This document shows positions 1,685 through 37,134 of a stretch of 47,822 nt of DNA, piece by piece. This DNA is from an uncultured Methanosarcinales archaeon. Lineage in GTDB: Archaea; Nanobdellota; Nanobdellia; Woesearchaeales; UBA12501. Position 1 is the first letter of the stretch; each line of letters begins with the position of its first letter. Where the stretch lies: contig CAYNHV010000007.1 of the NCBI GenBank assembly GCA_964397315.1, positions 1 through 47,822 of the forward strand, in the 5' to 3' direction. The translations under genes and the position numbers were made by a program. The notes beneath the pieces were generated by a model, which saw only the letters and a list, made by a program, of their open reading frames with translations, was not told the origin of the DNA and searched no databases.

Positions 1685-3694
1685 TTATTTTTTCAGGGAG
1701 CTTCTGAGCCTCTCTATCTCTTCCTCAATCTTTTTCATCCTGATGCCTGACATGGCCTTTTCAATATGGCTTTCAACCCAGCCGTGCCTTTTAAGATGCT
1801 TTCTTATGTGCTCCTTTTTGAACCCCCTATCTATCATCCTTTTAATATAATGCTCAAGCTCCTTTATCTTGCTCTGCTCAATGTCCTCAAGCAGGCCGTA
1901 GATCTTCTGGTATTCTGACTCATAGGCATTCTCAAGATCTCTGATCCTGTTTTTTAGTTTCTTCTGGCTCTCTGCCTCAATTCTCTCAACCTTTGACTTC
2001 AGGCGGAGGGCAGCAATGGATGCTGATGCAATCAGGGCCACTGACACGAGGATTATAAGGGCTACATACCATCCTTTTTTCTCTTCTGCTATCTCTCTTG
2101 CCTCTTCAATCCTCTGCTCCCTGCTCTTTGACACATAAAACATCTGGCTTGATGTTGATATGGAATCCTCATACATCACCCTGGCAGCTATTATGTAATT
2201 CCCCTCCTGCATATCCTCAGGCAGTCTTATGCTTTTTGTGACAATGGTCTGTTCCTTTATAGACACCATTTCAGAGCTTCTTTTTATTATACTGCTGTCC
2301 ATGCTCTTTATGATATACTCTATCTCAACTTCCACTCTTCCTGTGTCTTTCAGGTTAAATATTGTGAAGTCAGCTTTTATCTCCCCTCCTGCAAGGATAT
2401 CCCTGTACCCTGAATGAATGTTTATGCTGGTGTCAAAAAGGACTTCAACCGACTCAATCTCTATTATTACAAGCACTTTCTTGATAATCCCCTGCCCGCC
2501 TTTCAGGATATTGATGTACAGCTCTCCTGTGTAGATATCCGGAACAGTATTTTCAGGAGCTGAAAAGAACAGCTCAACAGTCCTGTTGCGGCCTGCCATA
2601 ACAATGAACTCGCCTGCAGGGAAATCAAGGAACCTTTTTATCTCATTGGAGGCATTGAGCACCATTTTAAGGTCGTATCTTCCTGTGTTCACTATTGTGA
2701 GGGGCTGGCTGTGGTTTCCTCCTGCCCTTAGAAACACCTTTACTGTTTCAGGGTATGTTTCAACAGGCAAGACAGCCTCTCTTGACACAGCATGCCCTCC
2801 CTCAAGCATTGTCACCCTCATCCTTGCCTTCCTGTTGCTGTCAATCTCAAGAAGCGCAATATTAAGATCATCCCTGCCGTCAAGATTCATGTCAATTCTT
2901 CCGGCCTCGTCCAGCCCAATAACAGCTTCTCCAGAGCCTGCCCTGACCTTTATGGAGCCATCCTCTACGCTCTCTATGACCATTGTGTGGGCGGTTATGC
3001 CGTTAAATGTGAATATTATGCTGTCGCCCTCATATCCTGTCACAAGCTTGCTTTCCACTCTTGTGAAATCAATATCAAACATCATGCCTCCTGCGCCTCC
3101 CCCTCCAGAGGGTCGGCGTTCCTCTTCAGGGCATGTCCCGCAGTCTGCAGGGCAGCTGGAGCAGTCCTCATTCCTGCCGCAGATGCCGTCACCGCAGTAC
3201 TGGCTTGTTACGCTCAGGTTGAAGATGATTGAATGGCGGTTATTAGAGCAGGAGCTGTTGTCCCTTGCTGTAATGTTTATTGAATGCTCTCCTGCGTCAT
3301 CCTTCTTTGGAGTGAATCTTATCAGGCCTGTTGCAGGCTCTATGTCAAAAAGTCCGGTGTTGTCATAGAAAGTGAGGTTCTGGCCGTTTTCATCCACAGC
3401 ATCAATGTCGCATGTGTAAGTGGTTCCGATGTATGATACGCCGCTGCAGGAGTGGCTTATGACAGGCCTTGCATTGATGCACATCTCAATGGTTCCCTTG
3501 GATGCCTCTTCAGAGGATACAGCACCTGCAGCATTGCTCACGCTTGCTATTATGTAACTGTTCATTGCAAGGGAGGCTAGAACTATAGTCATTGCAAAAA
3601 TGCCCAGTGTGTTGTTTGAGACATGCCTCATTTTATATGTTTGACTGCCTGTCCCTCCTGCACTGTTGTCATTGGGATTTTCAGCTGTCAGCAT
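1685..3694 (-). CDS. Membrane-anchored surface protein (cadherin/Ig-like domains, Cys-rich CGDG.C repeat, C-terminal TM and cytoplasmic helical tail)
   Basis: N-terminal TM; 'IDAVDEN..LTF..LFDIEPATGLIRFTP' cadherin-like; 'CGDGICGRNEDCSSCPADCGTC'; Gly linker; C-terminal TM. Start could be Met at 3631. Confidence 0.75.
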   Translation of the reverse strand: MLTAENPNDNSAGGTGSQTYKMRHVSNNTLGIFAMTIVLASLAMNSYIIASVSNAAGAVSSEEASKGTIEMCINARPVISHSCSGVSYIGTTYTCDIDAVDENGQNLTFYDNTGLFDIEPATGLIRFTPKKDDAGEHSINITARDNSSCSNNRHSIIFNLSVTSQYCGDGICGRNEDCSSCPADCGTCPEEERRPSGGGGAGGMMFDIDFTRVESKLVTGYEGDSIIFTFNGITAHTMVIESVEDGSIKVRAGSGEAVIGLDEAGRIDMNLDGRDDLNIALLEIDSNRKARMRVTMLEGGHAVSREAVLPVETYPETVKVFLRAGGNHSQPLTIVNTGRYDLKMVLNASNEIKRFLDFPAGEFIVMAGRNRTVELFFSAPENTVPDIYTGELYINILKGGQGIIKKVLVIIEIESVEVLFDTSINIHSGYRDILAGGEIKADFTIFNLKDTGRVEVEIEYIIKSMDSSIIKRSSEMVSIKEQTIVTKSIRLPEDMQEGNYIIAARVMYEDSISTSSQMFYVSKSREQRIEEAREIAEEKKGWYVALIILVSVALIASASIAALRLKSKVERIEAESQKKLKNRIRDLENAYESEYQKIYGLLEDIEQSKIKELEHYIKRMIDRGFKKEHIRKHLKRHGWVESHIEKAMSGIRMKKIEEEIERLRSSLKK

Positions 3695-4115
3695 TCCATA
3701 ATGCCCTTGTGAAAGTTATCCTGACTTTGCCTGTGTAATTGCCGTACTCAACAGAAGCAGGCACGTCAGCTGACAGCCTGATCTTCTTCTCCTCTCCCGG
3801 CTGAAGCAGAGCCCTTCTTTCCCTGGCTTTTATCCACCTTGCAATATCTCCACTGAAGCTGAATTCCGCCTTTATGGGATAATCTTTCTTGTTGCTCAGC
3901 TTTATGAATCTTGCGCTGCTTGATGAGCCGGGCATGACCATTCCGAAAGCAACACTCGTGTTGTCAGTGTTAAATCCTATATGATCGCCCACCATGATAC
4001 TTGCATTGTATTCTCTTGCCCCCTCCACATAGAAGAAAGAGTATGAGACTATTGCAAGGCAGAATCCTGCTGCTGCCATTATCAGGAGTAGGATTGCTAG
4101 GCTGCTTTTTTTCAT
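3681..4115 (-). CDS. Secreted/anchored single Ig-fold protein, putative minor pilin-like subunit
   Basis: N-terminal TM; 'VAFG', 'IKLSN', 'VPASVEYGNYTGKVRITFT' pattern parallels the neighbouring pilin-like paralogs. Confidence 0.6.
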   Translation of the reverse strand: MKKSSLAILLLIMAAAGFCLAIVSYSFFYVEGAREYNASIMVGDHIGFNTDNTSVAFGMVMPGSSSSARFIKLSNKKDYPIKAEFSFSGDIARWIKARERRALLQPGEEKKIRLSADVPASVEYGNYTGKVRITFTRALWNADS

Positions 4116-4155
4116 ATTTTCCTGATAAAAACGCTAGTTTTATATATTTTGCTTT

Positions 4156-5304
4156 TTAATCCCGCTTTTTCCTCTTCAACAAAAGCATGACATTGATTAT
4201 GGTGAGAAGGATTATCAGCGCCACCACAGCAAGCCCGCCTGTGATTACCAGGCTTTTAGGGGCTTCCAGGATTCCTGGCTTCAGGACAGTGATATTGCCC
4301 CTATGGACTGCCTTGTTCTTGCCGTAATGCACCTCTATCATGACAGGATACTCTCCCGGAACAGTATTGTTTGCGTCCAGATGCCCTGTGAGGGTATTCC
4401 TTGAGAGAGGGGGTATGGGCTCTGTGGCTGTCTTGGCTGTGATATTATGAGGTTCTGCGCTGACTGTCACAACAGCAAAAGCATTCACCTCGTTGTTCCA
4501 TTCATTTTCCACTTCCACATTGAACTTGTTTATCCTTCCTGAGTATATGCTGCGGGTGTAATTAATAGCATTTACCTTCATCTGGCCGATCCTGAATGAC
4601 TTGTTAATGCTCATCCTGCTGCTGTCATAGTTTATGACTGCTGTGACATTGTACTCTCCAGCAGCCAAGCCGGCAGTGTCAACACCTATATTCTTTGTTC
4701 TTTTCTGTCCTGATGCAAGGGGGAAATATCCTGACTCAGCTTTCTTGACCAATGTTTTGTTTGAATCATATATGTTCAGGACAGCATTTATTAATCGTAT
4801 GTCCTGCTTTCCAAGGTTGCTTATTGTAAGCTTAAAATCCGCGGTTTCATTGGTATCCACATTCTGCGTCTTAAGAGACGCGGTTATGTACTTGCCAGGG
4901 TAAAGGATAAACACATTAAGTGGACTCTGGACTCTTGTCCTTACATTTATGCCTCCGCTTTCCCTCTCCACAACCTCTGCAGCCCCTACCATTATCTTGT
5001 GCATGCCGGGCTCTGCTGTTATGTTGGCAGGGAACCTGAGTGTTGCAGTAAACTTCTTCTTGCTTCGGCCCACAAGCTCTGCTTCGCTTAGGGTAACATA
5101 ATCCTTGAGTTCTCCCTCAACATAGGGCATGACATCATTTCCGAAGCCGTTTGCCACAAACTCAAAAGAAACAGTCTTGCGGGGCTCTGCTATTATGTAG
5201 TCAGGAAGGGGCTCTGAGCTTAATCCTATTGCCTGGGAAGGCTGCGCGAGAATGATTGCTGCCAAGAGCAGCGCAAGAGCCAAACAGGAGTTTCTGAAAT
5301 CCAT
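4156..5304 (-). CDS. Signal peptide + multi-Ig (chaperone-like) protein with C-terminal TM anchor
   Basis: Signal peptide ending SQA|IGLS; beta-rich domains; C-terminal TM then KRKKRD; paralogous architecture to 8714..9952. Confidence 0.65.
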   Translation of the reverse strand: MDFRNSCLALALLLAAIILAQPSQAIGLSSEPLPDYIIAEPRKTVSFEFVANGFGNDVMPYVEGELKDYVTLSEAELVGRSKKKFTATLRFPANITAEPGMHKIMVGAAEVVERESGGINVRTRVQSPLNVFILYPGKYITASLKTQNVDTNETADFKLTISNLGKQDIRLINAVLNIYDSNKTLVKKAESGYFPLASGQKRTKNIGVDTAGLAAGEYNVTAVINYDSSRMSINKSFRIGQMKVNAINYTRSIYSGRINKFNVEVENEWNNEVNAFAVVTVSAEPHNITAKTATEPIPPLSRNTLTGHLDANNTVPGEYPVMIEVHYGKNKAVHRGNITVLKPGILEAPKSLVITGGLAVVALIILLTIINVMLLLKRKKRD

Positions 5305-5352
5305 GCTGTTCTGCTGTCCTTTTCTCTTTTTAAATTTTGCTGAAAACCGGTT

Positions 5353-6675
5353 TCAGCTTAGTGTTGTCGCTGTCATGTTGAAGCTTGTGTTTAGGAGCCC
5401 TGTTTTTGAGTTGTCAGGTATTCTCAGTTTTATGTGTAGTTCAATCTCGTCGTTGTCCTGTCCGGGGTGGAAGTTGTCGCAGTTTCTCCACTCCCTTTCA
5501 CTGACATCGCTCCATGAATCGAATGAGCTGGTGTCGTTGCAGCTTCCTGCCTCTATTTCTGTCCAGTTTCCCTGGTAGATGGGGTCTGTTCCTCCTATGA
5601 ATGTGCTTGCGTCATCCGTTGTTGAGGAGTTGAGGGTGATGTTTCTGTTTCCCACGTTTTCTATGCGTATTCCTGTGTCAGGTGTTATGAATTCATTGCA
5701 GCACTTTTTTGAGTCTGTGTTCCTTTCCCTGTCGTACCTTTCCTTTATCTCTTTTGGGCTGAGGCTTCTGTTGTAGATTCTTACTGTGTCTATGATGCCT
5801 TTAAAGGGATTACCGCCCACATATGACCCAATCACGGTTAGGTTAGCCCGCTGCACTTTTCCGTTGAGGGGGGTAGCGTTTTTCTGCTCGCCGTTTATGT
5901 ATATTGTCATGTTGCTTCCGTTGTATGTGAGGGCCACATGGTACCATTCATTCTCAGCGGTTGATGTGGTGGAGGTAACTGCGTTTTTATCACCTGTCTC
6001 GTTCCGCACCTCGCATATTATGATATCCCCCCCGAATGGATAGTTGTCCATCATGCCGGCTGCTTCGTGATCCCTAAGGCACTTGAATGCGGGATTTGAA
6101 GTTGATTCTATCAGGTTCTGGTTGTTAGCGGTGCCGCCCATTGAGTAGAACCAGTACATCACAGATATTTCATCTGTGTCCCCTATGGGGCGCGTGGTGC
6201 TGTTCCCCATAATCCAGTCGTCATCTCCGTCAAAGTGGTATGCCCCCCATGTTCTTCCTCTTCTAGGCTTGTATGTTGCCTTAATGTCGCTTATGTTTAT
6301 GTTGTTGTGGTATTCCCTGCTGTAGGTGCTGTTGCTGGTGGAGTTCTCGTCGTTGTTGAATGTCCATGCCGCCACCAGGCCTGTGTCCGAGCCGTTAATT
6401 TTTGATTGTTTGCCCGGCGTGTGCATTGTGCAGTTGCTGCATGAGGGGTCTACTGTTCCGCTTCCGAAGTTCAGTCTGTGTACTGTGAGGTTTATTGCTG
6501 TGTTTGATGTTATTGTGGCGTCTACGCTGCCTTCCTGGCTCAGGGTGTCATAGCCTGTTATTGTTGCTAGCTGTATCTTCTGGAGTTTTCCGAGGCTTAG
6601 GAGTGTTCCTCCTAGTGATACTGCGATTGTGGCTATCAGGAGGATTGTGATGGTTTTGTTTGTTGTGTTTTCCAT
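5353..6675 (-). CDS. Pilin-like secreted protein with inserted LamG (concanavalin-like) domain
   Basis: N- and C-parts match 7926..8561; insert has LamG motifs 'GAYHFDGDDD', 'WYHVALTYNG', 'FKGIIDTVRIYNRSLS'. Confidence 0.8.
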   Translation of the reverse strand: MENTTNKTITILLIATIAVSLGGTLLSLGKLQKIQLATITGYDTLSQEGSVDATITSNTAINLTVHRLNFGSGTVDPSCSNCTMHTPGKQSKINGSDTGLVAAWTFNNDENSTSNSTYSREYHNNINISDIKATYKPRRGRTWGAYHFDGDDDWIMGNSTTRPIGDTDEISVMYWFYSMGGTANNQNLIESTSNPAFKCLRDHEAAGMMDNYPFGGDIIICEVRNETGDKNAVTSTTSTAENEWYHVALTYNGSNMTIYINGEQKNATPLNGKVQRANLTVIGSYVGGNPFKGIIDTVRIYNRSLSPKEIKERYDRERNTDSKKCCNEFITPDTGIRIENVGNRNITLNSSTTDDASTFIGGTDPIYQGNWTEIEAGSCNDTSSFDSWSDVSEREWRNCDNFHPGQDNDEIELHIKLRIPDNSKTGLLNTSFNMTATTLS

Positions 6676-6798
6676 TCTCTCTTTTCCTTTGTTGTTTTCT
6701 GTGCTTTTAATGCTTTGGCTTTCTTTTTGCTCCTTTGTAATGCTTAATTCTCTCCTGTGAGGGGTTGAAGTCCAAACTGCTATATAAAGTTTTTTTTT
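6419..6798. repeat. Near-identical duplication of 8305..8684 (promoter, 5' UTR and 5' part of pilin-like gene)
   Basis: Direct alignment at offset 1886 with few mismatches. Confidence 0.9.
6781..6798 (-). promoter_or_regulatory. Archaeal BRE/TATA promoter of pilin-like gene 5353..6675
   Basis: Minus strand AAAAAAAAACTTTATATA about 105 bp upstream of the ATG; identical copy at 8667..8684. Confidence 0.6.
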
Positions 6799-6899
6799 AT
6801 ACTGTTATCTCAATTATGGATTGCAGGCGCTTATCATAAAAGTAGAAAAATATTGCAAGAGCTGTGGCAGATCAACCATCACCTGCTATCTTTCCCTCT

Positions 6900-7556
6900 T
6901 TATACTGTAGATGCTGTTGCAGTTACTGTGGCATTCCTCAGCCCTGTCTCTGAGTTGTCAGGTATTTTCACCTTGATGTCAATGCTGAGCTCATCATTTG
7001 CCAGTCCTGGCCTGAATATCTCGCATATCTGGGGGTCGTCTGTCTTCACATCAGCAAATGTGTGATTCCATGTCACGTTTATTCCTGAGGTTTCAGTTCC
7101 TGACGCGTTTATGCAGCTTCCTGCCTCTCCCTCTGTTAGATTCATCTGCAGCAGGGGAGAGCTGCCGCCTATGAAAGATGCCGCGTCCTGGCTGAAGTTG
7201 AGGTTTATGGATGCGTTCCTGTTTCCGACATTCTCAAGCACAAGCCCTGATGCCGGAGCAGTGAAGCCGCTGCAGCAGGTTGAGTCAGTTACGCTTGGTG
7301 TGTGCATTGTGCAGTTGTTGCATCCTGATGTCACTGTGCCTGTGCCGAAGCTCACGGTGTTTGTTGTGAAGTTTATTGCTGTGTTTGATGTCACTGTTGC
7401 TTCCACACTGCCTTCCTGTGTGAGTGTGTCATAGCCTGTTATTGTTGCTAGCTGTATCTTCTGGAGTTTTCCGAGGCTTAGGAGTGTTCCTCCTAGTGAT
7501 ACTGCGATTGTGGCTATCAGCAGGATTGCCAGTGTTTTGTTTGATATCTCTCTCAT
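6900..7556 (-). CDS. Pilin-like secreted protein (paralog 2)
   Basis: TM + ATITGYDT; 'SFGTGTV', CNNC...CC, 'LENVGNRN', 'DELSIDIKVKIPDNSETGLRNATVTATA'. Confidence 0.8.
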   Translation of the reverse strand: MREISNKTLAILLIATIAVSLGGTLLSLGKLQKIQLATITGYDTLTQEGSVEATVTSNTAINFTTNTVSFGTGTVTSGCNNCTMHTPSVTDSTCCSGFTAPASGLVLENVGNRNASINLNFSQDAASFIGGSSPLLQMNLTEGEAGSCINASGTETSGINVTWNHTFADVKTDDPQICEIFRPGLANDELSIDIKVKIPDNSETGLRNATVTATASTV

Positions 7557-7589
7557 TTGTGCCTGCCTCCATTATTTTTTATGAGCTTT

Positions 7590-7844
7590 CTAATTGCTGT
7601 TTGGGTTATTCCCCTTTATCTCAAGGTTTATGTTGCCTGCTATTCTCGGCTGCTCCTCTACATTGAGTGATACTGTGCCTGAATTGCTTCTGCTGGCTGT
7701 TTTGCTCTCATAAGCATCATCCATGCCATGTATCCTGTCAGCTGATTCAAGGACAGCGAAAGTGCCTGCAAAAGACACTGCTAATACCAGAATAGCCAGA
7801 AATATTATTGTCCTGTTGGATATATCCCTTTTATTCCCATCCAT
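7590..7844 (-). CDS. Small membrane-anchored protein with pilin-like N-terminus
   Basis: 'DISNRTIIFLAILVLAVSFAGT' resembles the paralog signal; ends with strand-like 'SNSGTVSLNV' matching pilin 'QEGSVEATV'. Confidence 0.6.
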   Translation of the reverse strand: MDGNKRDISNRTIIFLAILVLAVSFAGTFAVLESADRIHGMDDAYESKTASRSNSGTVSLNVEEQPRIAGNINLEIKGNNPNSN

Positions 7845-7925
7845 GAGTGTTAAAATATGAGCCTATTATATAAATTTTACTCTTTTGAGGCTGTTGGAGC
7901 TTTCTCAGAGCCTTTTTAAGGGGTT

Positions 7926-8561
7926 TCAGCTTAGTGTTGTTGCTGTGAGGTTGAAGCTTGTGTTCAGGAGTCCTGTCTTGGAGTTGTCCGGTATTCTCAG
8001 TTTTATGTGTAGTTCCAGCTCGTCATTAGCTTGCGTGGGGTACAGATTGTCGCATAAGCGCGCTTCTCCAATGTCTAAGTCTCCCCAAGAGCCCCAGCTT
8101 GATCCGCTGGTGTCGTTGCAGCTTCCTGTTTCTAATTCTGTCTTGTTGACCTGGTAGATGGGGTTTGTCCCTCCTATGAACGTGCTTGCATTGTCTGTCA
8201 ATGAGGCGTTGAGGGTGACGTTTCTGTTTCCCACATTCTCTACTCTCAGCCCTGTTGCCGGTGCAGAGAATCCGTTGCAGCATGTTGAGTCAGTTACGCT
8301 TGGTGTGTGCATTGTGCAGTTGTTGCATGTTGGGTCTACTGTTCCGCTTCCGAAGTTCAGTCTGTGTACTGTGAGGTTTATTGCTGTGTTTGATGTTATT
8401 GTGGCGTCTACGCTGCCTTCCTGGCTCAGGGTGTCATAGCCTGTTATTGTTGCTAGCTGTATCTTCTGGAGTTTTCCGAGGCTTAGGAGTGTTCCTCCTA
8501 GTGATACTGCGATTGTGGCTATCAGGAGGATTGTGATGGTTTTGTTTGTTGTGTTTTCCAT
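7926..8561 (-). CDS. Pilin-like secreted protein (paralog 1)
   Basis: True start MENTTNK at 8561 by identity with 5353..6675; the ORF-track extension to 8693 covers the promoter/UTR. Confidence 0.8.
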   Translation of the reverse strand: MENTTNKTITILLIATIAVSLGGTLLSLGKLQKIQLATITGYDTLSQEGSVDATITSNTAINLTVHRLNFGSGTVDPTCNNCTMHTPSVTDSTCCNGFSAPATGLRVENVGNRNVTLNASLTDNASTFIGGTNPIYQVNKTELETGSCNDTSGSSWGSWGDLDIGEARLCDNLYPTQANDELELHIKLRIPDNSKTGLLNTSFNLTATTLS

Positions 8562-8666
8562 TCTCTCTTTTCCTTTGTTGTTTTCTGTGCTTTCAATGCT
8601 TTGACTTTCTTTTTGCTCCTTTGTAATGCTTAATTCTCTCCTGTTAGGGGTTGAAGTCCAAACCGC

Positions 8667-8684
8667 TATATAAAGTTTTTTTTT
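8667..8684 (-). promoter_or_regulatory. BRE/TATA promoter of pilin-like gene 7926..8561
   Basis: Minus strand AAAAAAAAACTTTATATA. Confidence 0.6.
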
Positions 8685-8713
8685 GCACTGCACAAACTGC
8701 TGGCTTGAATCCT

Positions 8714-9952
8714 CTATGGGAATATCCTCCTCCTTCTCCTTTTCAGGGCTATGAAAAGGATTATGTTGGAAACTGCCAGAACAGCAAGGGCTATAATGAG
8801 CATGGAGCTTCCTGACACCCTGCCGTCCCTTCCATGATCTCCTCCAGTCACAGCTCCGGCTGCATTCACCCCTCTTATGCTTATGCTGTCAAATCCCACA
8901 TCCATTATGAACTGCTTTTCTGTGACAAGCCTTGTATAATGCAGTATTACATTAAGGGTGTAAGTGCCGGGACTGACATCCTCAGTGTCCCAATAGGCAT
9001 TGAGAACCCCCACAGAATCCGCCTCAACATTTGTTGATGCAGTCTTGAACATTGTGAGCTGCCTGTTGCTGCTGTCCTTGACTTCAACATCAGCATAGAC
9101 ATCCTCTATCCTCTGGTTCCACATGTTCTGCAGGAATATGTTAAGCTTGGCTATTCCTCCAAGCTTGAAATTCTCAGCCCCCACCCCTTGTATCTCAACG
9201 AGCTTTGACCCAATGAAAAACTCCTTCTCTAGCACCTCCTCTTTTCCTGCATAACTTACTTTTATTACAGCCCTGTACCTTCCCCTTCTTCCATCTCCAT
9301 GGTATTCTCCTGTTAGCTTTCCCTTTCCCCATTTTTTCAGGCTTATGCTGTCTGTGCTTATTGCTCCTACAAGGTCTCCTTCAGGGCTGTAAATCATTAT
9401 CTCAGCGCTTATTCCCTCAATGTTCTTGTCTCCCCTGTTGAATACTGGTATTGTGAACCTTGCAGAGCCCCCCTCAGAAGGCGTGTTGATGTAAACATCA
9501 GAGACTTCTGCGTATACCTCAGGGTATGGGACATTGATTCTGATTTGGTGCACAACCTCCACAGTAGCCGAGACTCTTGCGGCATCCTCCTCTCCCTCAG
9601 CTGTTTTCGGCATCTCAAGTATCTTCAGCTTTATCTCGTTCTGGCCAGGCTTCTTCTTCATATTTCCTGTCATCACAACATTTGCCTCTATTGTTCTCAT
9701 TGACTCGTCACTGCTCATGGTTATTATGTTATCCTCTATCTCAAGGAGGTCAGAGAATTCCCCTTCAGCCTGTATGAACAGCCTCATGTCCTTGAGCTCG
9801 TTGTTGATTATGTTGACCTTAATGCTCTCCATGCCCGGCTTGAAATCCAGTGTTGTTCTTGCAGGCGTGACTCCAAGCGCTGCTGCAGTGCCTGATAAGA
9901 TTATCATGGCTAGGATAATCATGCACATCCTGCTTGTTATTCTGGTTTTCAT
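8714..9952 (-). CDS. Signal peptide + chaperone-like Ig domains + C-terminal TM anchor
   Basis: AAA|LGVTPA N-terminus typical of PapD/DUF916-like domains; C-terminal TM + KRRRRR; ATGA overlap with the upstream adhesin. Confidence 0.65.
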   Translation of the reverse strand: MKTRITSRMCMIILAMIILSGTAAALGVTPARTTLDFKPGMESIKVNIINNELKDMRLFIQAEGEFSDLLEIEDNIITMSSDESMRTIEANVVMTGNMKKKPGQNEIKLKILEMPKTAEGEEDAARVSATVEVVHQIRINVPYPEVYAEVSDVYINTPSEGGSARFTIPVFNRGDKNIEGISAEIMIYSPEGDLVGAISTDSISLKKWGKGKLTGEYHGDGRRGRYRAVIKVSYAGKEEVLEKEFFIGSKLVEIQGVGAENFKLGGIAKLNIFLQNMWNQRIEDVYADVEVKDSSNRQLTMFKTASTNVEADSVGVLNAYWDTEDVSPGTYTLNVILHYTRLVTEKQFIMDVGFDSISIRGVNAAGAVTGGDHGRDGRVSGSSMLIIALAVLAVSNIILFIALKRRRRRIFP

Positions 9953-12900
9953 CCTGACATCGCACCTGTTATTATGACTGTGGAGGTCTTTGAGCCCATG
10001 GGCTCGTCAGCCGGAACCTTGACCCTGATATCCACCTCAGCATCATCCTTTGAATCTGAATAGTTCAGGCTTGAGATCACTGTCTCATTCGCCACATCCA
10101 CATCAGGCATATCTGTCCATGTTGTTATGGAGGTTGCCCAGTCAAACGCCCCTGATTCTGTGGTCCTGTTGTTTGCCTTGAACTGGAAGAATGAGGTGCC
10201 CAAGCCGACAGCGCTCCATAAGCTCTCATTAGCCCCTATCTCCACAACATCAGCCTCTGTGTTGCCGTCATTCCGGACTTTTAGAGGGTTAGCAGGGGCT
10301 CCTTCATAGCTGGTATTGTAATCCTCATTAATGCTCACGCTTCCGAAGCTTGAGTTGTCATTGGGCAGGCTGATTATGAGGGAGGATGCAACAGTAAAAT
10401 TCCACTTGTCAGATGCAGTTCCATTTACGGTTCCGTCGCTTGGGGTTATGGTCCAGTTATACAGGCTGTCCAGGCAGAGGTCAGAGCTTGGGGTGAAGTT
10501 AGTGTCTGTTATGCCTCCCTCAATGATATCCGGGCAGGTTGCATGGGTTATGTTGATTGTGTACGTGATACTGTCTCCGTCAGGATCTGATGATTCTGTC
10601 CAGTTGAACAAGGGAGTCCTGTCAAACACTGTGGTGTTGCCGTTGGCAGGGTGGATGAGAGTGACCTGCTGAGGCTGTGAGTTCTCTATTATGAGGCTGT
10701 TGGACCATGCCTCTGTTCCGTTCAGGCCATATTCGTCTATTGGTGTGGCCTTTACTGTCCAGTTCTCCCCTGCGTTTGTTGCGCTGGAGTGGGTTGTGTT
10801 TGTTTTGTTTGCGTAGAGGAGATTGATTTCTGCTTCTGAGAGGGTTCTGTTGTAAATGCGCACCTGGTCTATGCTGCCGTCGAAATTATAATCCCCACTG
10901 GGAGCAATTCTCCCTATCCAAAACTTATTTGCTTCATATGTACCCACACTGCCAGAAGAAGATACATCATACTCTACTCCATTTACATAAACTTTTGGAG
11001 TATCTCCATCGTAAACCCCTACTATATGATACCACTCACCTGATGTATCAATTGGACCTGCGCTGGTTACCCAGTAATTACTTCCATCACCTGCATCATT
11101 CGGAAAGAAAATACGAACATCATTATCCATTTGATATACATCAACTCTTGTTCCATCTGATAGAGTAAATCCAACAACACCATGAATACCGGATAATACA
11201 TCTGGATTTATCCACGCAGAAGCCGTATAGTTTACTGTACTTTTAGCAAAATCACCCATAACATAATCATCACTACCATCCAATTCATATGCTCCTGCTC
11301 CGTCATATCCTCCTGTTCTGTTCCATTCTGCTCCTTGTATTGTTCCGTGGTTTTGGTTGCCTGAGAGGTCGTAGGTTTTGTTGTTTTTGTCTGGTGCTGT
11401 GAATGGCATGTTGAGGGTTGTGTCTGAAACACCGTCTATATACCAGTTGTAGTTGATTGTTACTGCGTCATTGTCGGGGTCTGTTGTTCCGCTTGGGTGT
11501 GCTGTGAGGTTGTCTGTGGTTAGGTTGCTTGCGCTTGTTGCGTTGAGGAGTGTTGAGCTTATGGCGGGCTTTTGGTTTACGCTGAAGTTTCCCTCTGTTT
11601 CTGTTGTTCTGTTTGCTGTGTCGTTTACGTAGACTGTGTAGTTTGTGTGGGAGGGGTATGATTCGTTGATTGGCACTTCTGCTGTCCAGAGGCCTCCTGT
11701 TAGGCTCATGAGCCCTTCCCACAGTGTGTTTCCTGCTGATTTGGTTGTTTCCCATAATTTTATCCAGACGCTGCTTATTGTTCCTCCTATGTTGGTTATG
11801 TTGAATCTTATGCTTAGGTTTTGGTTGGGGTTTACAGGCTCTGTCTCGTTGACTTTCTGGGAGGGTATGTTTGCTGGTGTTTGGTTGTAGAGGCTTGAGA
11901 GCATCTGTGTTATGTTGAGGCTGTTGGACCATGCCTCTGTTCCNNNNNNNNNNNNNNNNNNNNNNNNNNNNNNNNNNNNNNNNNNNNNNNNNNNNNNNNN
12001 NNNNNNNNNNNNNNNNNNNNNNNNNNNNNNNNNNNNNNNNNNNAGAGGCTTGAGAGCATCTGTGTTATGTTGAGGCTGTTGGACCATGCCTCTGTTCCAT
12101 TCAGGCCATATTCGTCTATTGGTGTGGCCTTTACTGTCCAGTTCTCTCCTGCGTTTGTTGCGCTGGAGTGGGTTGTGTTTGTTTTGTTGGCGTATAGGAG
12201 TTTTATCTCGTTTGCAGAAAGGCTCCTGTTGTAGATGCGGACATGGTCTATACTGCCGTTGAAAAGCCTTCCAGTATCAATATCATCAACCCTTCCAACA
12301 AAAAAATCATTAGAAGTAGAAGGAGTTGCGTCACTATCTTGAGTAGTACCAGCTGACAATTCATTTCCATCCAAGTATGCTTTAGCATTACTTATGTTCC
12401 CATCATACCAGAAACAAATATGATGCCATTGTCCATCTGTAGTGGTAGGAGTGGAAGAAAAATACCTATATCTTTGACCATTTAAATACAAAAGAGGTCT
12501 TCCTGAAGACCAAGAATTACTTATCATTGGTCTTACACCACTACTATGCCACCCAAACAAAACTTTTTGGTCTGAACTATCATCACTTTTTATCCAACCA
12601 CAAGCAGTAAAATTCAAATGATTATTCATAATATCCTTCAAAACATCATAATTGGCTTCAATATAATCATTAGTCCCATCAAAATCATAAGCTCCAAATC
12701 CATCATATCCTCCTGTTCTGTTCCATGTTGCGCCTTCAACAGTTCCGTGGTTGTCATTGCCTGAGAGGTCGTAGGTTTTGTTGTTTTTGTCTGGTGCTGT
12801 GAATGGCATGTTGAGGGTTGTGTCTGAAACACCGTCTATATACCAGTTGTAGTTGATTGTTACTGCGTCATTGTCGGGGTCTGTTGTTCCGCTTGGGTGT

Positions 12901-15900
12901 GCTGTGAGGTTGTCTGTGGTTAGGTTGCTTGCGCTGGTGGCATTCAGAAGCACCGAGGTTATGGATGGCTCTGAATTCACAAAGAAACTGCCGTCCTCAG
13001 CGTATGTGGCGTTTATCCTTGAGCCCTGCACCCATGGTATGACCAGAAGGCTGTGGTTGCCTGCAATATTGAGCAGGTTCAGATCTACAGTCAGGTTCTC
13101 TGATGTGGTGTTGTCAATGTTTGTCCTGCTTCCATCAGAAGTCCTGTTGAGTATAACCTCATAACTGACAGTGTTAATTGATGACTGCTCTGTCCAGTTG
13201 GCGAGGAAGGAATCCCAGGGGTTGAACACCTCACCGGATGCGGGATAGGATGCGTTGGAGGGACCGCAGTCACCGCCCCCCATGTATGCGGAGGCTATGC
13301 TCTCTTCGTAGAAGTTCCCATCCCCTTTGATGCAGAAGTCTGCTGAAGAGCCGTTCTCAATGCCTCCGATGTAAAAGTTGTTCAGCCAGACGCTTGCTGT
13401 GTTGCCTTGCAGGTTGAGGCTGTACAATACTGGGAAGTCATACTGGTTGAATGTGTTGCCTGTGATGTTGTTATCACTTCCGGATGAGTCTATGGCGTAA
13501 TGCTCGTGCCGGCTTGTGTTTTTGAAAGAGAGGGTTGGCGGGTCCGTGTTTCCTGAAACCACGGACACCTCAGCAGGCATGTGTAATGTATAATCGCTGC
13601 TGAACCCATTGGCCTCCCAGAAGAGGCTGTTATTATAGTGGGAGTCCCCCTCTCCGAAGTAAAGCTCGGGTGTCTGGTTTGGTTTAAAATACAGGGCAGG
13701 GTCTGAATAGCCCGAGACCACAGAGACCTGGTCTGACTGGTTGAGAGTGTAATTATTGCCGTAGCCGTTCTCTATCCAGTAGATGCTTTCGTTGTACTCT
13801 GAGTTGCCGCCGTTTGCTGCGTAGAGGTCTTGGCATTTGTTAGGGCCTGGTTCATAATAAATAGTGTACTTGTTTCCCCCCACGTCTCCAAGGCAGAGTG
13901 TGAAGTTGGTATTGCCATCAGCAACTTCTGACACATTCTCCCCGTCTGCTGTTACCTCTACGCTTGTGCCCATGTCATTAGTGAAGTAGTAAACCTGAAA
14001 ATCATAATCAGTTCCTCCATGACTCATCGGCGAGAGGGTGGAATAGAAATCCCCTACTGTGGAAACATTAGAAGAGCTCTGGAGGGTGTAATCATAGCCA
14101 TAGCCGTTCTTTATCCAGTATGTCTCATTATAATGGGAGTTGCCGCCGTTTGCTGCGTAAAGGTCCTGGCATTTGTTAGGGCCTGGTTCATAATAAATAG
14201 TGTAATTGTTTCCCCCTACTTCCCCAAGGCAGAGTGTGAAGTTGGTGCTGCCATCCACCACTTCTGACACGTTCTCCCCGTCTGCTGTTACCTCCACGCT
14301 TGTGCCCATGTCATTCGTAAAATAAAGAATTTCATAATCATACATTGTTCCGTTCCACCTGACTGGGGAGAATGTGGAAAAGAACTCCTTATCGCCGTAT
14401 ATCTCATCAAACACATTCTCGCAGTCATAGCTTGTCGGCTTCTCCACCAGCAAAGTCACATTCACCCCTCCTCCAAAGGTTGAATCGCCGAGGCAGAGCA
14501 TGAAATCATTGCTGCCATTAACTATTTCGCTGACATTGGTGTCGTCAGAGCTGACCCCCACACTCTCTGTGGTGTCATTGTTGTAATAAAGAACATTGGT
14601 GTAATCATACTCCACTCCATTGTAAGCCAGAGGAGAATAAGATGAAACATACCTCTCCTCGTTTATCTCTTCCCCGCACGTGAGGAAAGTGTTGTTTTCT
14701 ATGGTGTTGTTGCTCCCGCTTATTATCATGCAGCTTCTTTCAAGGCTGCTGCTGTTGAGGGTGTTGTTGTAGGCGTGGGCGTTGCTCCCGCTCATTGTTG
14801 TTTGGTTGTTGATGATTGTGTTGTGCACCACACTCCTGCTGTATGTTGTTAGGTAGTCTGTTGTGCTATTAGAGAGGTTTGAGTTAGAGTAGATGTGAAT
14901 GTTCGGGCTGTTAATATCCCATGATGTCGTGTTCTCCCCACTATCAAAATCACCATTCTTGCTTGTGAGGGTGATGTTCCAGAACGTCCCATTCTGGACA
15001 GTAGCGTCGTCGAGGCGGAAGCCAGCATCTTCTGAGAATGTGATGTTCCACACCCTCACATTCTGAAGATTATTATCGGACAGGCATGAGAAGGCATCAG
15101 CGTTAGGACTATCCCGCAGGTCAAGGTCAATCACGTGAGGCGTGCCAGTAGCAGCAGAGTCCCTGCCGAAGCTTACCTTGCCGGACACGTTCCAAACCTC
15201 CATGCCCTGCAATGTCTCATTACCATAAGGCCGGAACGTCACGCTCGTGCTGCCTCCGAGATTGTAAGCTGTTACGTCCCTCATTGTGGTGTTAGTGTCA
15301 GCGTCCTCGCTCCCAAGGTCAAGAGCTACTAAATTGGTGCTGACATCATGCACGCTCACGTTAGAAATGTTGCCTCCTATGCGAACAGCGTGCTCGTCCT
15401 CAAAAATGTCGTGAATGCTCACGTTACTACTGCCGAAGAAATGGTTGATACTGTCTCCACTATACCAATAGAATGCTCCTCCGTTGAGCACTCCAGCACC
15501 ACGCCCCATGTCAGTAGCGTTCAAACTCCGGACAGTAATGTTCTTGTAACCCTCTGGTATTTGAACTCCAACACCATCAACATACGTTGTCAGCCTGGTA
15601 TTCCACTCCCTGCTACCCATGTCCAGCGTCGTATCATTTGCCTTCACCTGAATCATGGTGCAATCATCAATGGCGCAGTGGAAGGAGGAGTTCTCCCCTC
15701 CAACGTACTGCTCCTCAATCTCCGCTTTGGAAAGGGTTCTGTTGTAAACTCGCACCTGGTCTATGCTGCCGTTGAAATACCCTGTACTATCCCTTCCCAC
15801 CCATACGGGAGCACCATTATCAACCATTCCTGAATAACTCCCTCCAGAAGCACTATTGGTATCAGCTATTTCCCCGTTCAGGTATATGTCAATACCCTCA

Positions 15901-17843
15901 AGGGTCTCACTTCCGTCATACACTGCCACAAGATGGTTCCACTCTCCTGTGCTTATAACCCCTGCATCAGTAAATCTTTGAATGTAATAAGGTGCGCCCC
16001 CTGTCTCCTGCAATATTACCAAACGCAACTTATCTGATGAATCCAGATAGTTGATTGTCCATTCTCTTGAACCAATCTCATCATACTTGCCCACCAGCCC
16101 CATATCAGAAGATAAAGAGGATGCGCTAAACCACAAAGAAACACTAAAAGGCGTGTCGTCAGCGCCGTCATTAAAGTGAAATCTTCCCGCATTACTCACA
16201 TTAACATAATCACTGCCGTCAAAATCATAAGCCCCACCATAAAAGGACGTGCTATTCCAAAATGCGCCATGCACTGTTCCGTTATTCTCCTGCCCGGAAG
16301 AATCCCAGGTCACGTTCTCACCAGTATGATTCACGTCAAAATCATAAGCCAGCAACAAGCCATCCTTATCAAAATAAGGCTGAGATGAATTAATAGCCCA
16401 CCTGTTAATCCCATAAGAGCCAGGCTCATTAATAACACACCTGAGATTAGAATCATTATTAACCTTCAAACAAGCTGTGATGTTAGTGTAAGAAGAAGAA
16501 TTAACAAAATAATCAGAGAAATGTTCAACCCTGAATATATAAGAGCCCTCTTTAATCTCAACATCATTATACATCCTTTTGTTCTTCCTGTAGGGCTCGG
16601 CCCTGCTGAATTCTGCTTTGCCCTCTTCTTTTATGTAAAGCTTTGGTGCTGTGCTTATTCCATCTGGCCTCTCTCTGGGCAGGGTTATCTCTGCCTCCTC
16701 AATATCCACAGGATCCACCTGCAGCACGCCATCCCTGAACCTTATATTGCTTATACTGCTCTTGTTCGCGCCCCTTATCTCCAGCCTCACCCCCTTCTTG
16801 TCAAGGATGGAGATAGGCACTGTCCTGCCTCCTGCCTTCCTTTGTTCTGTCCTTATGTCAGAGCTGGTGAAATCAACATCAAAGGGGCTTTCAGGCTGTT
16901 CTGCTGTATAATCTGCAGATATATTATGCAGAGCCTCTTCTGCCTTCCCCACAGACGCATTAATGGATTCATTGGCGCTCTCTCCTGTAATGTTTGAGCT
17001 TGTTGCATTAGCCCCCTCCTGCGTTATTCCGGTTGTCATATTTGACTGGTTCAATGCTGTCTGGTTTAATGCGGTCTGGTTCAGGCTTTCATTGAGGGAT
17101 GTCGCATTTAGGGAGGTTGCATTAGAGGCTTCTTCAGAGGATATGTTTGCTGTCAGATTGCCTGTCTCAGATCCATCCCCTTCTGTCAGGTTCACGCTCC
17201 TGTTTATGCTTTCATTTTCAATAGGGGTGGCATCAGCTTTAGGGGCTATAACCTCAAATAAGGAATTCAAAGTAACTGATGAATTGGCCTTGCTTATTGT
17301 CGCTTTGATGGTGTAATTCCCTGCCCTCTCTACAGGAAAGTTCAGGGCGCTGGCATAAAGCTTTCCGCCAGGCCCGTAAACCTCAATCTCATAGTCTGCG
17401 TCATGAGGCATCACAAACACATGGACCATATCGCTCTTGTTGTACACATCTTTCCCTGTGAAAACCTCTGCAGATTCAAGGCTGTCTGAAACAGTGTGGC
17501 CTGTTATTCTTGCCTGGTTGCCTGCCAGGAATCCCAGAAGCAGGAATATGAGAAAGCAGGAGAGGGCAACAGCAGTGTGATGCCTGGCTGAGCTTAGGCT
17601 TTCAATCCGCCTCATCTTCTTTTTAAGTTCCTCCTCTTTTCTGTCATAATATGCCAGCCATTCAACAGGGTCCCATCCCCTGAGGTTGTTTTGTATTCTG
17701 GAGCTGTACTCATCATATCCCATCCTTCCTTCTTCAACTTCCTTAAGGAGAGAGAGGGAATACTCTTCTACCTGTTTCCTGTAGCTCCTGCATCTGCTTA
17801 TATCCTGCCTGAGCTCTTTGATGCTTTTGTTTGCGCTGCTCAT
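9949..17843 (-). CDS. Giant adhesin (~2580 aa if the gap is closed): TM, Ig, HFS module, three LamG domains, beta-helix repeats, C-terminal pilin-like domain
   Basis: ORF-track pieces 9949..12087 and 11910..17888 are split by an N gap with 55-bp duplicated flanks; merging stays in frame. ATG 17843 overlaps the stop of the upstream HTH gene (ATGA). Confidence 0.8.
11944..12043. other. Scaffold gap (100 N) inside a repeat of the adhesin gene
   Basis: 11889..11943 is identical to 12044..12098. Confidence 0.95.
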
Positions 17844-18358
17844 TTTCCTCTTTTTGACTTTTTTCCGGCCCTTTGGTAGGCTGTCCATACAGTACGGTCA
17901 TTCCTCTTGAGAGCCAGAGCTATCTCATGATAGCTCCATCCCAGATTATCCTTCAGATACGTGACGATGCTTTCCTGCATTCCTAATTCCCTGCTCCGCA
18001 ATATGCTGAGTGGTATTTGTGTGTGTTCTGATGGGGAGAATGCAGCCGGCTTTTTGGATGATGCCTTGTTGTATGCTGTCCACACTGTCTTGATGTTCCT
18101 TCCTGTAATCTTTGCTATCTCCCTGAACCTGAGCAGAAGGTTCTCCCTAAGGTACTTAACAAGCGCCTCAAATGCCCCAAGGTTTTTGTTCCTGAAAATG
18201 CAAACCGGAACTGATTGTGGAGGCTCAAAAACCAGCGATAAGAATTCATCCCTGAATATGTTCCTTGCTGTGTCATATGAGAGATTTCTGTCTGCGAATG
18301 TTCTAAGGCTCCTGACAGCCTTTTCATCCTTAAACGGCTTTTGCAGAGATGTTTGCAG
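17840..18358 (-). CDS. Tandem-HTH DNA-binding protein (~172 aa), probable CTG start
   Basis: The frame of ORF 17840..18085 stays open to ~18385 and contains a second copy of the repeat (...YLRENLLLRFREIAKITGRNIKTVWTAYNKA / ...YLKDNLGWSYHEIALALKRNDRTVWTAYQRA). GAGGGG lies 6 nt before CTG 18358. Confidence 0.75.
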   Translation of the reverse strand: MQTSLQKPFKDEKAVRSLRTFADRNLSYDTARNIFRDEFLSLVFEPPQSVPVCIFRNKNLGAFEALVKYLRENLLLRFREIAKITGRNIKTVWTAYNKASSKKPAAFSPSEHTQIPLSILRSRELGMQESIVTYLKDNLGWSYHEIALALKRNDRTVWTAYQRAGKKSKRGK

Positions 18359-18564: not shown

Positions 18565-18699
18565 TCAGACTTTTCTGCGCTTAAAAACGCTCTTAACACT
18601 GTCAAAAACAATAAAAATAAAAATAAAATGTATTTCTGGTGCTAAAAGCAGTAAGCCATAGGGAAGCGCGAATTGACACACAATAAAAAGAGGTTTTTT

Positions 18700-19461
18700 A
18701 TGGGCAACAATAAAAGAAACATTGAGTACATAAAGACAGGCATTACAGGCTTTGACTCCCTTCTCAAGAACGGAATTCCAAGAGGCTCTTCAGTTCTTGT
18801 TGCAGGCGGCCCGGGCTCAGGAAAGACAATCTTCTGCCTGCAGATATGCAACTATTACGCGAGCAAGGGGGAGAAATGCCTTTACATGAGCTTTGAGGAG
18901 CCGGAGAAAAGGCTGAGGCAGCACATGCACGACTTCGGCTGGGATCCTGAGAAGCACGAGAAAAACGGCAATCTCCTGATAAAGAGATTTGACCCTTTTG
19001 ACATAACAAGAAGCGTTGAGGCCCTGCTCACAAAAGCAAAGAAGGAGCTCATGATAGAGGTTGAGCCTGTGTTCTTTCCCCAGGGCTTCACCCCCAGCAT
19101 TGTGGTGCTTGACTCAATGTCAGCTGTTGCTGCCGCTTTTGTAGGCAGGGAGGACAGCTACAGGATTTACATAGAGCAGCTTTTCAGGTTCTTTGAAAGG
19201 CTCGGCGTGACATCATTTCTCATAACAGAGGTTGACAATCCCGAGAGCATGGGCCTGACAAAAAGCGGTGTTGAGGGATTCCTTGCTGACGGCATAGTCC
19301 TGTTCCAGTATTCAAAAGAGAAAGGCATAAGAAATAAGGCAATTGAGATACTCAAGCTAAGAGGGGGGGGCTTTGACAAGAAGGTTGTGGAGATGGACAT
19401 AAAACCAGGCAAGGGGATAGTGGTTAATCCAAACAAGACAGTTTCAATAAGAAGGATGTGA
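18700..19461 (+). CDS. KaiC/RAD55-family RecA-superfamily ATPase (single domain)
   Basis: 'IKTGITGFDSLL..GIP', Walker A GGPGSGKT, 'YMSFEE', Walker B 'VVLDS', 'ILKLRG'; GAGGT before ATG 18700. Confidence 0.92.
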   Translation: MGNNKRNIEYIKTGITGFDSLLKNGIPRGSSVLVAGGPGSGKTIFCLQICNYYASKGEKCLYMSFEEPEKRLRQHMHDFGWDPEKHEKNGNLLIKRFDPFDITRSVEALLTKAKKELMIEVEPVFFPQGFTPSIVVLDSMSAVAAAFVGREDSYRIYIEQLFRFFERLGVTSFLITEVDNPESMGLTKSGVEGFLADGIVLFQYSKEKGIRNKAIEILKLRGGGFDKKVVEMDIKPGKGIVVNPNKTVSIRRM

Positions 19462-19496: not shown

Positions 19497-20042
19497 TCAT
19501 CTCTTGTGGAGAAGCCCGAGGATAAATCTTTTCTCTCTCATGCAGTACCATATGCAGTATGCAGCAGCTCCTCCTGCCAGCCCTGCCAGCAGGTAGGAGA
19601 GCGTGGAGTTGATCAGGGTCTTTATGCCTGCGCTTATGTCAGCCTTTACCATAAGGCCCAGCACCCACGGCAGCACAGCTGCGGAGACCGCAGCTATGAG
19701 TATGACCATCCATGCTTTCATCTCAAGCTTTCCCCCTGCTATAGCTCCCAAAGCGCTGAACAACACACCCAATATTATGAAAAGCAGCACTATGCTGTAA
19801 TTCGTTAGCTGGCCTGCTGCAATCCTCATTCCAGCTGCAAGCGCCCCTCCTATGATAACAACGCCTGCAGGGGTGAAAGGCTTTCTCGTGAGCAGAAGCA
19901 TGAATGACATTAAGAACACTGTAACAATGACCATGACATAAAAGTCCAGGCCTGAAAATGCGTATATGAGAGCCCACAGCAATGCAGCTATAACCATGCC
20001 TGTAAGGCCCGCCTTTCTTGCCCCTCTCCTGCTCATTGTCAT
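19497..20042 (-). CDS. Multi-pass membrane protein, unknown function
   Basis: About six hydrophobic segments; directly downstream of 20051..20995. Confidence 0.7.
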   Translation of the reverse strand: MTMSRRGARKAGLTGMVIAALLWALIYAFSGLDFYVMVIVTVFLMSFMLLLTRKPFTPAGVVIIGGALAAGMRIAAGQLTNYSIVLLFIILGVLFSALGAIAGGKLEMKAWMVILIAAVSAAVLPWVLGLMVKADISAGIKTLINSTLSYLLAGLAGGAAAYCIWYCMREKRFILGLLHKR

Positions 20043-20050
20043 GCTCTACC

Positions 20051-32209: not shown

Positions 32210-32315
32210 TAGATATATTATCACGACCATGAAAATCCCCATTGGCCGTTTCTATATATAATTTACTAAAAAGGCGGGCTTAAAGCTCCGCACGTTAAGG
32301 TGGAGACAAAGGTTT

Positions 32316-33470: not shown

Positions 33471-33494
33471 GTTAACCACCCTTTAATTAAATTT

Positions 33495-37133: not shown

Positions 37134-37134
37134 C

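Follow-up and report, generated by a model that had tools for sequence, protein, structure and literature searches.

The DNA stretch analysed here (contig CAYNHV010000007.1, 47,822 nucleotides, hereafter the window) carries at positions 1685-17888 a gene cluster which, with a probability of about one half, encodes an archaeal surface fibre of the usher-free, chaperone type, with subunits linked through exchanged beta strands. All genes of the cluster were confirmed on the minus strand, and they are transcribed in the order giant adhesin (17888 to 9949), P8, P7, P6, P5, P4, P3, P2, and P1 (table 1). The fibre reading is based on gene anatomy, family size, synteny, and a predicted monomer fold, the system being known here from genes alone; the cleavage site, the strand exchange, the chaperone role, the assembly order, and host attachment are what we infer from them. 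The fibre is probably an analogue of the bacterial Elr/WxL and Pam pili rather than a tested member of either family.

The candidate fibre subunits are P7, P5, and P4, that is, the three paralogues with a core of ~210 amino acids (aa) which had been recognized in an initial annotation of the window. P5 is 62% and P4 83% identical to P7. In P7, a transmembrane (TM) signal (residues 5-33) is followed by a T-G site (40-41), an N-terminal extension (~42-60), and a beta-sandwich (61-209). The profile of this family is divided among other proteins of the cluster. In a search of the source genome, P6 matched positions 3-62 only, that is, signal and extension (E 9.1e-7), whereas the end of the giant adhesin (last ~150 residues, ~9958-10404) matched positions 52-208 only (E 2.1e-15), that is, the subunit core without signal and extension. 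The adhesin thus ends in the fold of the subunits, as the initial annotation held, and it is a single gene. P6 had been described there as a signal plus a first strand. Its restriction to the first part of the profile agrees with this description, but two tandem short strands are indicated instead of one, the extension-only profile giving weak but recurrent hits to P6-type proteins, in two tandem positions per protein. In the P1-type proteins of seven loci, a single alternating donor-like stretch stands directly after the T-G-type site, and a donor-strand-like GTIEMCI stretch is present in P1 itself. P4 matches the subunit profile in two pieces (3-93 and 90-210), and its insert is a Laminin_G_3 domain (E 1.9e-25).

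An acceptor-only tip, a shaft of donor-plus-acceptor subunits, and a donor-only base can be read from this division, which, as far as the profiles tell, follows the logic of donor-strand pili. P6 is proposed as a terminator or membrane anchor, P1 as a fibre anchor, and P4 as an adhesive shaft subunit.

The N-terminus of the subunits is characteristic of the family. In an alignment of 150 sequences it follows the pattern S-N-[K/R]-T-L-A, hydrophobic helix, variable linker, and [I/L/V]-T-G, where the site after the helix has T in 134 sequences and G in 144. The extension alternates: G or A is found at position 49 in 148 sequences, V, A, I, or L at 51 in 132, L, V, I, or F at 53 in 139, and I, V, or L at 55 in all 150. 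The SN[KR]T-type motif occurs in 107 of the 157 family proteins and is missing from 50, some of which have short ordinary Sec signals (e.g., P0059 and P0070). Because of these members, it is argued that the helix of the subunits serves as an export signal and is absent from the mature structure. In the window, SN[KR]T-LA and [ILV]-T-G are located at the N-termini of the subunits (8538-8561, 7533-7556, and 6652-6675), with variant forms in P6, P1, and the giant adhesins. Since both motifs are common to subunits, P6, P1, and adhesins, a dedicated sorting or processing step is suggested for the proteins that carry them.

The cluster is flanked by genes for a rhomboid protease (943-1632) and a KaiC-like ATPase (18673-19461). 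The rhomboid protease was considered as the processing enzyme and dropped, as it is conserved beside the cassette in a single locus out of 34. Two archaeal-type signal peptidase I genes are present on other contigs of the genome (C4 and C6).

The subunit family is large. At E<=1e-3 its profile retrieved 1712 cluster representatives, of which 1191 remained at E<=1e-10 and 144 at E<=1e-30. Among 301 high-quality genomes sampled from the phylum to which the window belongs, 163 contain a match; at the genus level, matches occur in 118 out of 225.

The subunit model obtained with AlphaFold2 reached a predicted local distance difference test score (pLDDT) of 91.1 from 150 sequences (55 from 9 sequences). 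It shows a helix (5-33), a linker, and a beta-sandwich (61-209), and residues 34-60 remain outside any sheet in the monomer. The predicted fold resembles best, at a middling score, the subunits of donor-strand filaments. The top rows of the Foldseek search were Hyper2, CS20, Csu, AbpA, TLP-1a/b, TasA, and CfaB. VIA-align was run on this list and independently on 48,161 chains; the values obtained were Z 7.7 for TLP-1b (root-mean-square deviation 2.8 A, 131 residues aligned), 7.1 for Hyper2, 7.0 for the Csu pilus, 6.6 for CanA, 6.3-6.8 for FimG, 5.8 for the TasA fibre, 5.7 for both Saci_0406 and AbpA, and 5.6 for Tafi. TLP-1 fibrils are donor-strand assemblies according to the part of their description available to us (PMC11494351).

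Next to the subunit genes lie those of putative helper proteins. P3 and P8 are paralogues, and their family is marked by a signal, three immunoglobulin (Ig)-like domains, a TM helix, and a basic tail; the two signal-Ig-TM proteins named in the initial annotation are thus confirmed. The WxLIP_HBD domain (DUF3324, PF11797) was matched by 12 of the 33 members of this family (best E 3.5e-5). A word-indexed search with the P3 profile yielded nine proteins, and one relative has PF11797 among its precomputed domains. As a lead only, a language-model feature search with P3 placed a Bacillota cluster with DUF916 and DUF3324 at rank 27 (score 0.89). For the mature subunit, the nearest named Atlas clusters carry WxL with a score of 0.83, a value often reached by random sequences. 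A sequence search of the PDB with the P3 profile gave nothing meaningful (best E 0.11), and in hhalign the P3 family and the subunit family appear unrelated (probability 4%).

P2 was formerly regarded as a plain minor subunit. It proved to be a TM-anchored protein with a PapD/ASH-like Ig domain, related to the first domain of P3 (93.5%, E 2.3e-7); its relation to the subunit profile is weaker (85%, E 6e-6). Among 30 P2-type proteins, matches were recorded to PG_0320-like_C (12), ASH (8), and DUF916 (WxLIP_PGBD, PF06030; 4), the last of which was found in none of the 33 P3-type proteins. Because P2 is homologous to domain 1 of P3 and shows matches of the DUF916/ASH type, the domain order of P3 is seen as parallel to that of ElrE, given in the available part of its description as DUF916, DUF3324, and TM (10.64898/2026.10.17.759780). 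P3 is proposed as a membrane-tethered chaperone or assembly platform, P8 as a membrane-tethered chaperone for the adhesin, and P2 as a co-chaperone or base anchor.

The conservation of the cassette was followed in 34 related loci from genome collections, found with a 9-row subunit alignment and with their genes scored by phmmer against the window proteins. As two narrow peptide patterns were used in this search, the taxonomic range obtained is a lower bound. The loci are labelled Woesearchaeota, Nanoarchaeota, Pacearchaeota, and Nanobdellota. A P3-type gene is present in 29 of them, a P2-type gene also in 29, and both in 28. The order is always subunit, P3, P2 on one strand, with frequent stop/start overlaps; for instance, the start of P2 overlaps or abuts the stop of P3 in many loci. 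P6 lies directly upstream of the subunit gene in 20 loci, and homologues of P1 are found downstream of the cassette in 9. The succession of a small peptide, a subunit, an Ig-TM protein, and a TM-Ig protein recurs in 28 out of 34 cases, so that the gene set, whose neighbourhood the initial annotation had proposed to check, is strongly co-conserved. Six loci are without the P3 and P2 pair; three of these end at contig edges (L016, L034, and L035) and one has no P3 match (L044).

Orthologues of P8 (E 4.5e-56 to 5.7e-61) are found exclusively in L023, L025, and L046. In each of these the P8-type gene directly follows an adhesin matching the C-terminal domain of the window adhesin (E 7.5e-26 to 1.2e-22). 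Accordingly, the succession of adhesin and P8-type gene is seen in all three loci having an adhesin with a C-terminal subunit-type domain, in addition to the window.

Two further features of the related loci were observed. Nine of the 34 are labelled "uncultured Methanosarcinales archaeon" (L015, L017, L020, L022, L028, L030, L031, and L033, among others), and their cassettes are nearest to those of Woesearchaeota; this points to a doubtful label or binning, or else to a system that extends outside DPANN. In some relatives, a protein of ~186-189 aa without signal and a protein of ~960 aa having the shared HLSNN...ITG N-terminus are inserted between P2 and a P1-like protein of 1400 aa (L014, 3529-4098 and 4085-6967; L022, 11735-12295 and 12282-15191), which indicates that the operon varies in its distal part.

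The proposed course of assembly is as follows. All parts would be exported by means of the family-specific N-terminal signal (SN[KR]T, hydrophobic helix, [ILV]-T-G), which is probably cut after T-G. The mature subunit would then be a beta-sandwich behind an extension of ~17 residues with the pattern G-x-[V/A]-x-[L/V/I]-x-[I/V]. In polymerization, the strand of this extension would complete, by donor-strand complementation, the fold of the subunit before it, resulting in a linear polymer. The adhesin of 2594 aa with its LamG modules, having a subunit core without extension, would accept a strand only and thereby form the tip, and P4 would bring a lectin into the shaft. At the base, P6 (strands on a TM helix) and P1 (a donor-like strand and a C-terminal TM) may act as donor-only components which end and anchor the fibre. 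Membrane-tethered P3 and P8, and perhaps P2, would retain subunits and adhesin on the outer side of the membrane until the exchange takes place; a holding role of this kind mirrors that of ElrE and PamC/D in bacteria.

Several results weigh against such an interpretation. The subunits of the window match no Pfam or NCBIfam family (Pfam cut-off E<=0.1), at E<=0.01 no WxL, TasA, or pilin family was matched by any of the 150 family members, and comparison of the subunit profile with PDB sequences gave nothing meaningful (best E 0.37). In the case of Foldseek, suggested as a check at the outset, donor-strand subunits do occupy the top rows, but there is no match at E<=1e-3. All fold matches have Z values below 8, which is middling by the tool's own scale and may reflect just a common Ig-like arrangement, and MSP/ASH domains also reach Z ~6 against the subunit model. 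All WxLIP matches are below the Pfam gathering score (18.7 bits for P3 and 16.6 for P8, with a cut-off of 28.9), and 8 of the 33 P3/P8 family members match CARDB. PapD_N and PapD_C are absent among the families matched by these 33 proteins (E<=0.05; no usher search was made). A plain Sec signal leaves the conserved SN[KR]T-LA at the start of the helix without explanation. Finally, loci L032 and L039 possess subunit genes and at least 5 kb of downstream sequence, with no P3 or P2 match.

If the helpers are not chaperones, a fibre could still be formed in the way of cannulae, bundling pili, threads, and Tafi, by subunits that polymerize unaided, with P3, P8, and P2 serving as anchors, spacers, or separate receptors. 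This is rather unlikely in our estimation. It agrees with the archaeal donor-strand filaments of the literature, which in the accessible parts of the reports are described or proposed as chaperone-independent, and with the sub-threshold likeness of P3 to DUF3324. On the contrary, a P3-type gene adjoins the subunit in 29 of the 34 loci, a dedicated paralogue (P8) travels with the adhesin, and both the architecture of signal, Ig domains, and C-terminal TM, shared with ElrE and PamC/D, and the P3 domain order (PapD/DUF916-like, then DUF3324-like), which parallels ElrE, speak against such a reading. It is also unlikely that there is no filament at all and that the cluster encodes a cell coat or adhesion complex of glycosylated, membrane-anchored Ig-like and lectin surface proteins, the subunits being helix-tethered or monomeric lectin scaffolds. 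The monomer model of the subunit is confident by itself, the fold scores stay within the generic Ig-like range, and the genes of the cluster encode many N-X-S/T sequons and TM anchors; moreover, the fibre is so far a prediction from sequence and model. A coat of this kind does not account for the exact split of the profile into an extension-only P6 and a core-only adhesin end, nor for the conserved alternating extension that lies outside the sheet in the monomer model. The family members with short plain Sec signals instead of the long helix also speak against this reading, and the best structural neighbours among the 48,161 chains are donor-strand filaments.

A divergent type IV pilin-like system is very improbable. 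According to it, SN[KR]T-LA would be a class III signal cut between T and L by the prepilin peptidase of the genome, the helix would form the filament core, and one of three ATPase/TadC loci elsewhere would assemble the filament. The motif indeed falls precisely on the boundary that precedes the hydrophobic helix, K or R occupying -2 in 114 and T, A, or S occupying -1 in 115 of the 150 sequences, and helix 5-33 is predicted with high confidence. Other contigs of the source genome contain one Peptidase_A24, five T2SSE, and six T2SSF matches; the earlier statement that PilB and TadC are lacking is therefore right for the window, but not for the genome, where such genes and a prepilin peptidase exist. 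Nevertheless, homologues of these T2SSE, T2SSF, and A24 proteins were found neither in the 34 loci (382 kb) nor in the window, and no match to Pilin_N was obtained in the window proteins or in the 150 family members. The SN[KR]T-LA motif by itself does not settle the signal type of the subunits. The linker between helix and domain is variable and rich in gaps (positions 32-38 and 45-47), the near-invariant T-G after the helix resembles a signal peptidase site, about a third of the family proteins (50 of the 157) do without the motif, and the same N-terminus heads the giant adhesins.

With respect to known systems, two preprints of 2026 describe, in the parts available, usher-free pili having Ig chaperones anchored C-terminally in the membrane, namely Elr/WxL (10.64898/2026.10.17.759780) and Pam (PMC13278184). 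The Elr/WxL pilus of Enterococcus faecalis and other Bacillota is composed of the tip adhesin ElrA, the WxL pilins ElrC/D, the membrane chaperone ElrE (DUF916/DUF3324), and the base ElrB, and is reported in the same available text as confined to Bacillota. The chaperone-type fibre proposed here would likewise be usher-free, and its helper, with a signal, Ig domains, and a C-terminal TM, adjoins the pilin gene. Further likenesses are the alternating donor strand at the pilin N-terminus, beginning with small residues, the lectin-loaded tip adhesin with a pilin-type C-terminal domain, the small base protein with donor strands only, and weak leads, from sequence or features, that connect P3 with DUF3324/DUF916 and the subunit with WxL. 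On the other hand, the archaeal host is without cell wall, sortase, and LPxTG, and anchoring must use TM helices. PF13731, the WxL domain, is matched by 0/150 subunit family members at E<=0.01 and by none of the three window subunits at E<=0.1; P3 has three Ig domains and no above-threshold match, and the single-Ig, TM-anchored P2 is an extra component. The absence of sortase, claimed initially for the cluster, extends to the 93%-complete genome, where PF04203 has no match (archaeosortase was not searched for), and the end of P6 has no LPxTG.

The Pam pilus of Candidate Phyla Radiation (CPR) bacteria consists, in the accessible portion of its description, of the pilins PamA/B/E, the tip PamT, the TM-anchored PapD-like chaperones PamC/D, and the anchor PamR, and is stated there to be exclusive to CPR bacteria (PMC13278184). 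Common to it and to the fibre proposed here are a lifestyle group of ultra-small episymbionts, the lack of an usher (as proposed), a pair of chaperone paralogues tethered to the membrane, a tip that can only accept a strand, an anchor which, like P1, combines a strand at the N-terminus with a C-terminal TM helix, and a proposed role in host contact. Pam pilins differ in having two domains with a linker strand; the likeness is one of published architecture.

The archaeal filaments CanA/Hyper2, AbpA, Saci_0406, and Tafi (TafA/E, tip TafC, anchor TafF) also have beta-sandwich subunits, exported by Sec or Tat, and their linkage through N-terminal donor strands is the one proposed for the window. 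The available accounts present archaeal donor-strand filaments (cannulae, bundling pili, threads, and Tafi) as chaperone-independent or proposed to be so, in contrast to the cassette with its Ig-TM helper genes. Tafi is described in part as having a LamG-containing tip protein and anchors with TM and jelly roll. A sequence relationship to these filaments is lacking: the TafC model matches the LamG part only (40.2 and 23.9 bits, with a cut-off of 410), and the subunit N-termini of the window have no twin arginine.

Archaic and classical chaperone-usher pili (Csu/Fim/Pap) share the class of incomplete Ig-like pilin fold (Csu Z 7.0, FimG 6.8), a tip adhesin made of a receptor-binding part and an extension-less pilin domain, and a donor strand of alternating hydrophobic positions that includes a small residue. 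They differ from the window system because archaea have no outer membrane, PapD_N and PapD_C remain unmatched (with no search for an usher), and the helpers are membrane-anchored. As for TasA/camelysin, Peptidase_M73 (PF12389) and TIGR04088 gave no match in the Pfam and NCBIfam scans, the signal peptidase I genes are not adjacent to the cluster, and the fold match to the TasA fibre is among the lower ones.

Pili of this type have so far been described in bacteria only, and no comparable system in DPANN or other archaea was found in the literature searched (supplements excluded). Hence the term "undescribed" used in the initial annotation applies to archaea, but the principle is known from the two bacterial preprints. 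Overall, that interpretation is partly supported, and each test made agrees with it. If true, the membrane-tethered Ig helpers of an archaeal fibre would mean that a mechanism of Bacillota and CPR bacteria reaches a third group of single-membrane cells, and it would define a large protein family, with the above number of representatives, that has no family match at present. It is unlikely that Woesearchaeota-type DPANN use the cassette as their principal organelle of host attachment and that it is, at the same time, truly if very distantly homologous to WxL/Elr, the subunit being the counterpart of the WxL domain and P3 that of DUF916-DUF3324-TM. Were this so, usher-less, chaperone-guided donor-strand exchange would span both prokaryotic domains, as an ancient trait or by transfer, and the fibre would be the first chaperone-dependent one in Archaea.

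For DPANN archaea, which live attached to their hosts, the structures of host contact are to our knowledge mostly uncharacterized. As it is present in about half of the genomes sampled from the phylum and carries giant lectin-rich adhesins, the cassette is a concrete and testable candidate for an attachment fibre.

Table 1. Genes and promoter-like boxes of the cluster, and PEP-utilizers paralogues outside it, in window coordinates (BRE, B recognition element; PEP, phosphoenolpyruvate)
Feature	Position	Strand	Description
Giant adhesin	9949..17888	-	2594 aa as one open reading frame after scaffold-gap removal; N-terminal TM and ITG motif
P8	8714..9952	-	412 aa; signal peptide, Ig domains, C-terminal TM, basic tail
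BRE/TATA-like box AAACTTTATATA	8667..8678	-	Upstream of P7
P7	7926..8561	-	Fibre subunit candidate, 211 aa from ATG
BRE/TATA-like box AAAATTTATATA	7867..7878	-	Upstream of P6-P5
P6	7590..7844	-	84-aa membrane peptide; family N-terminus and TM helix, no core domain
P5	6900..7556	-	Fibre subunit candidate, 218 aa; in the place of the core cassette's single subunit
BRE/TATA-like box AAACTTTATATA	6781..6792	-	Upstream of P4
P4	5353..6675	-	440-aa subunit paralogue with LamG lectin domain (~229 aa) inserted in a loop
P3	4156..5304	-	382 aa; signal peptide (SQA|IGLS), three Ig-like domains, C-terminal TM, KRKKRD tail
P2	3681..4115	-	144 aa; N-terminal TM anchor and one PapD/ASH-like Ig domain
P1	1685..3694	-	669 aa; SNNT-type N-terminus, Ig-like ectodomain, TM near C-terminus, cytoplasmic coiled-coil tail
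PEP-utilizers paralogue	34111-35691	-	
PEP-utilizers paralogue	35688-37133	-	
PEP-utilizers paralogue	38142-39620	-	
PEP-utilizers paralogue	39617-41047	-	
PEP-utilizers paralogue	41044-42528	-	

The giant adhesin appears in the window as two open reading frames, separated by 100 N at 11944-12043, and the flanking 55 nucleotides are identical (duplicate at 11889-11943). A public contig of run X3 links 11888 to 12044 and skips these 155 nucleotides, which places both parts in one frame. The segment 11889-12043, consisting of the 100 N and the 55-nucleotide duplicate, is a scaffolding artefact; the break falls within a repeated LamG module. The joined protein contains at least three LamG modules (Laminin_G_3, E 1.9e-44 and 6.2e-29).

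The start of P7 was also revised. The open reading frame beginning at GTG 8693 is judged over-extended on account of the family N-terminus and the identical leader of P4, and the ATG start was adopted. Four copies of AAANTTTATATA occur in the window, with 0.01 expected, and three of them are located upstream of P4, P6, and P7. In addition, ~125 nucleotides upstream of P7 and of P4 are almost identical. From the boxes and these leaders, the separate promoters that the initial annotation assigned to the subunits appear reasonable, and P4 seems to have arisen by recent duplication.

The cluster is the sole copy in the source genome, as seen from the subunit-profile search. The stretch was found in three DNA runs, all belonging to one microbial-mat study, and no RNA run is listed.

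Outside the cluster, a second giant surface protein of 2258 aa (20992-27768, minus strand) carries the TM and S-I-T-G-H motif of the adhesin as well as its N-terminal domain. At its end, a TM helix and a long, charged tail, cytoplasmic and coiled-coil, take the place of a subunit-like domain. It is followed on the same strand by a protein of 314 aa with signal, coiled coil, and TM (20051-20995) and by a polytopic membrane protein of 181 aa (19497-20042). The proteins of the region 19497-27768 have no Pfam family above threshold.

Elsewhere on the minus strand (29395-42528), five tandem paralogues of 476-526 aa have each only the C-terminal PEP-utilizers mobile domain (table 1). A phosphate acetyl/butyryl transferase gene (37135-38145) interrupts their series, and PPDK_N is encoded as a protein of its own at 29395-30333. 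From its domain content, this region is an unusual, split and amplified array of PEP-utilizing enzymes.

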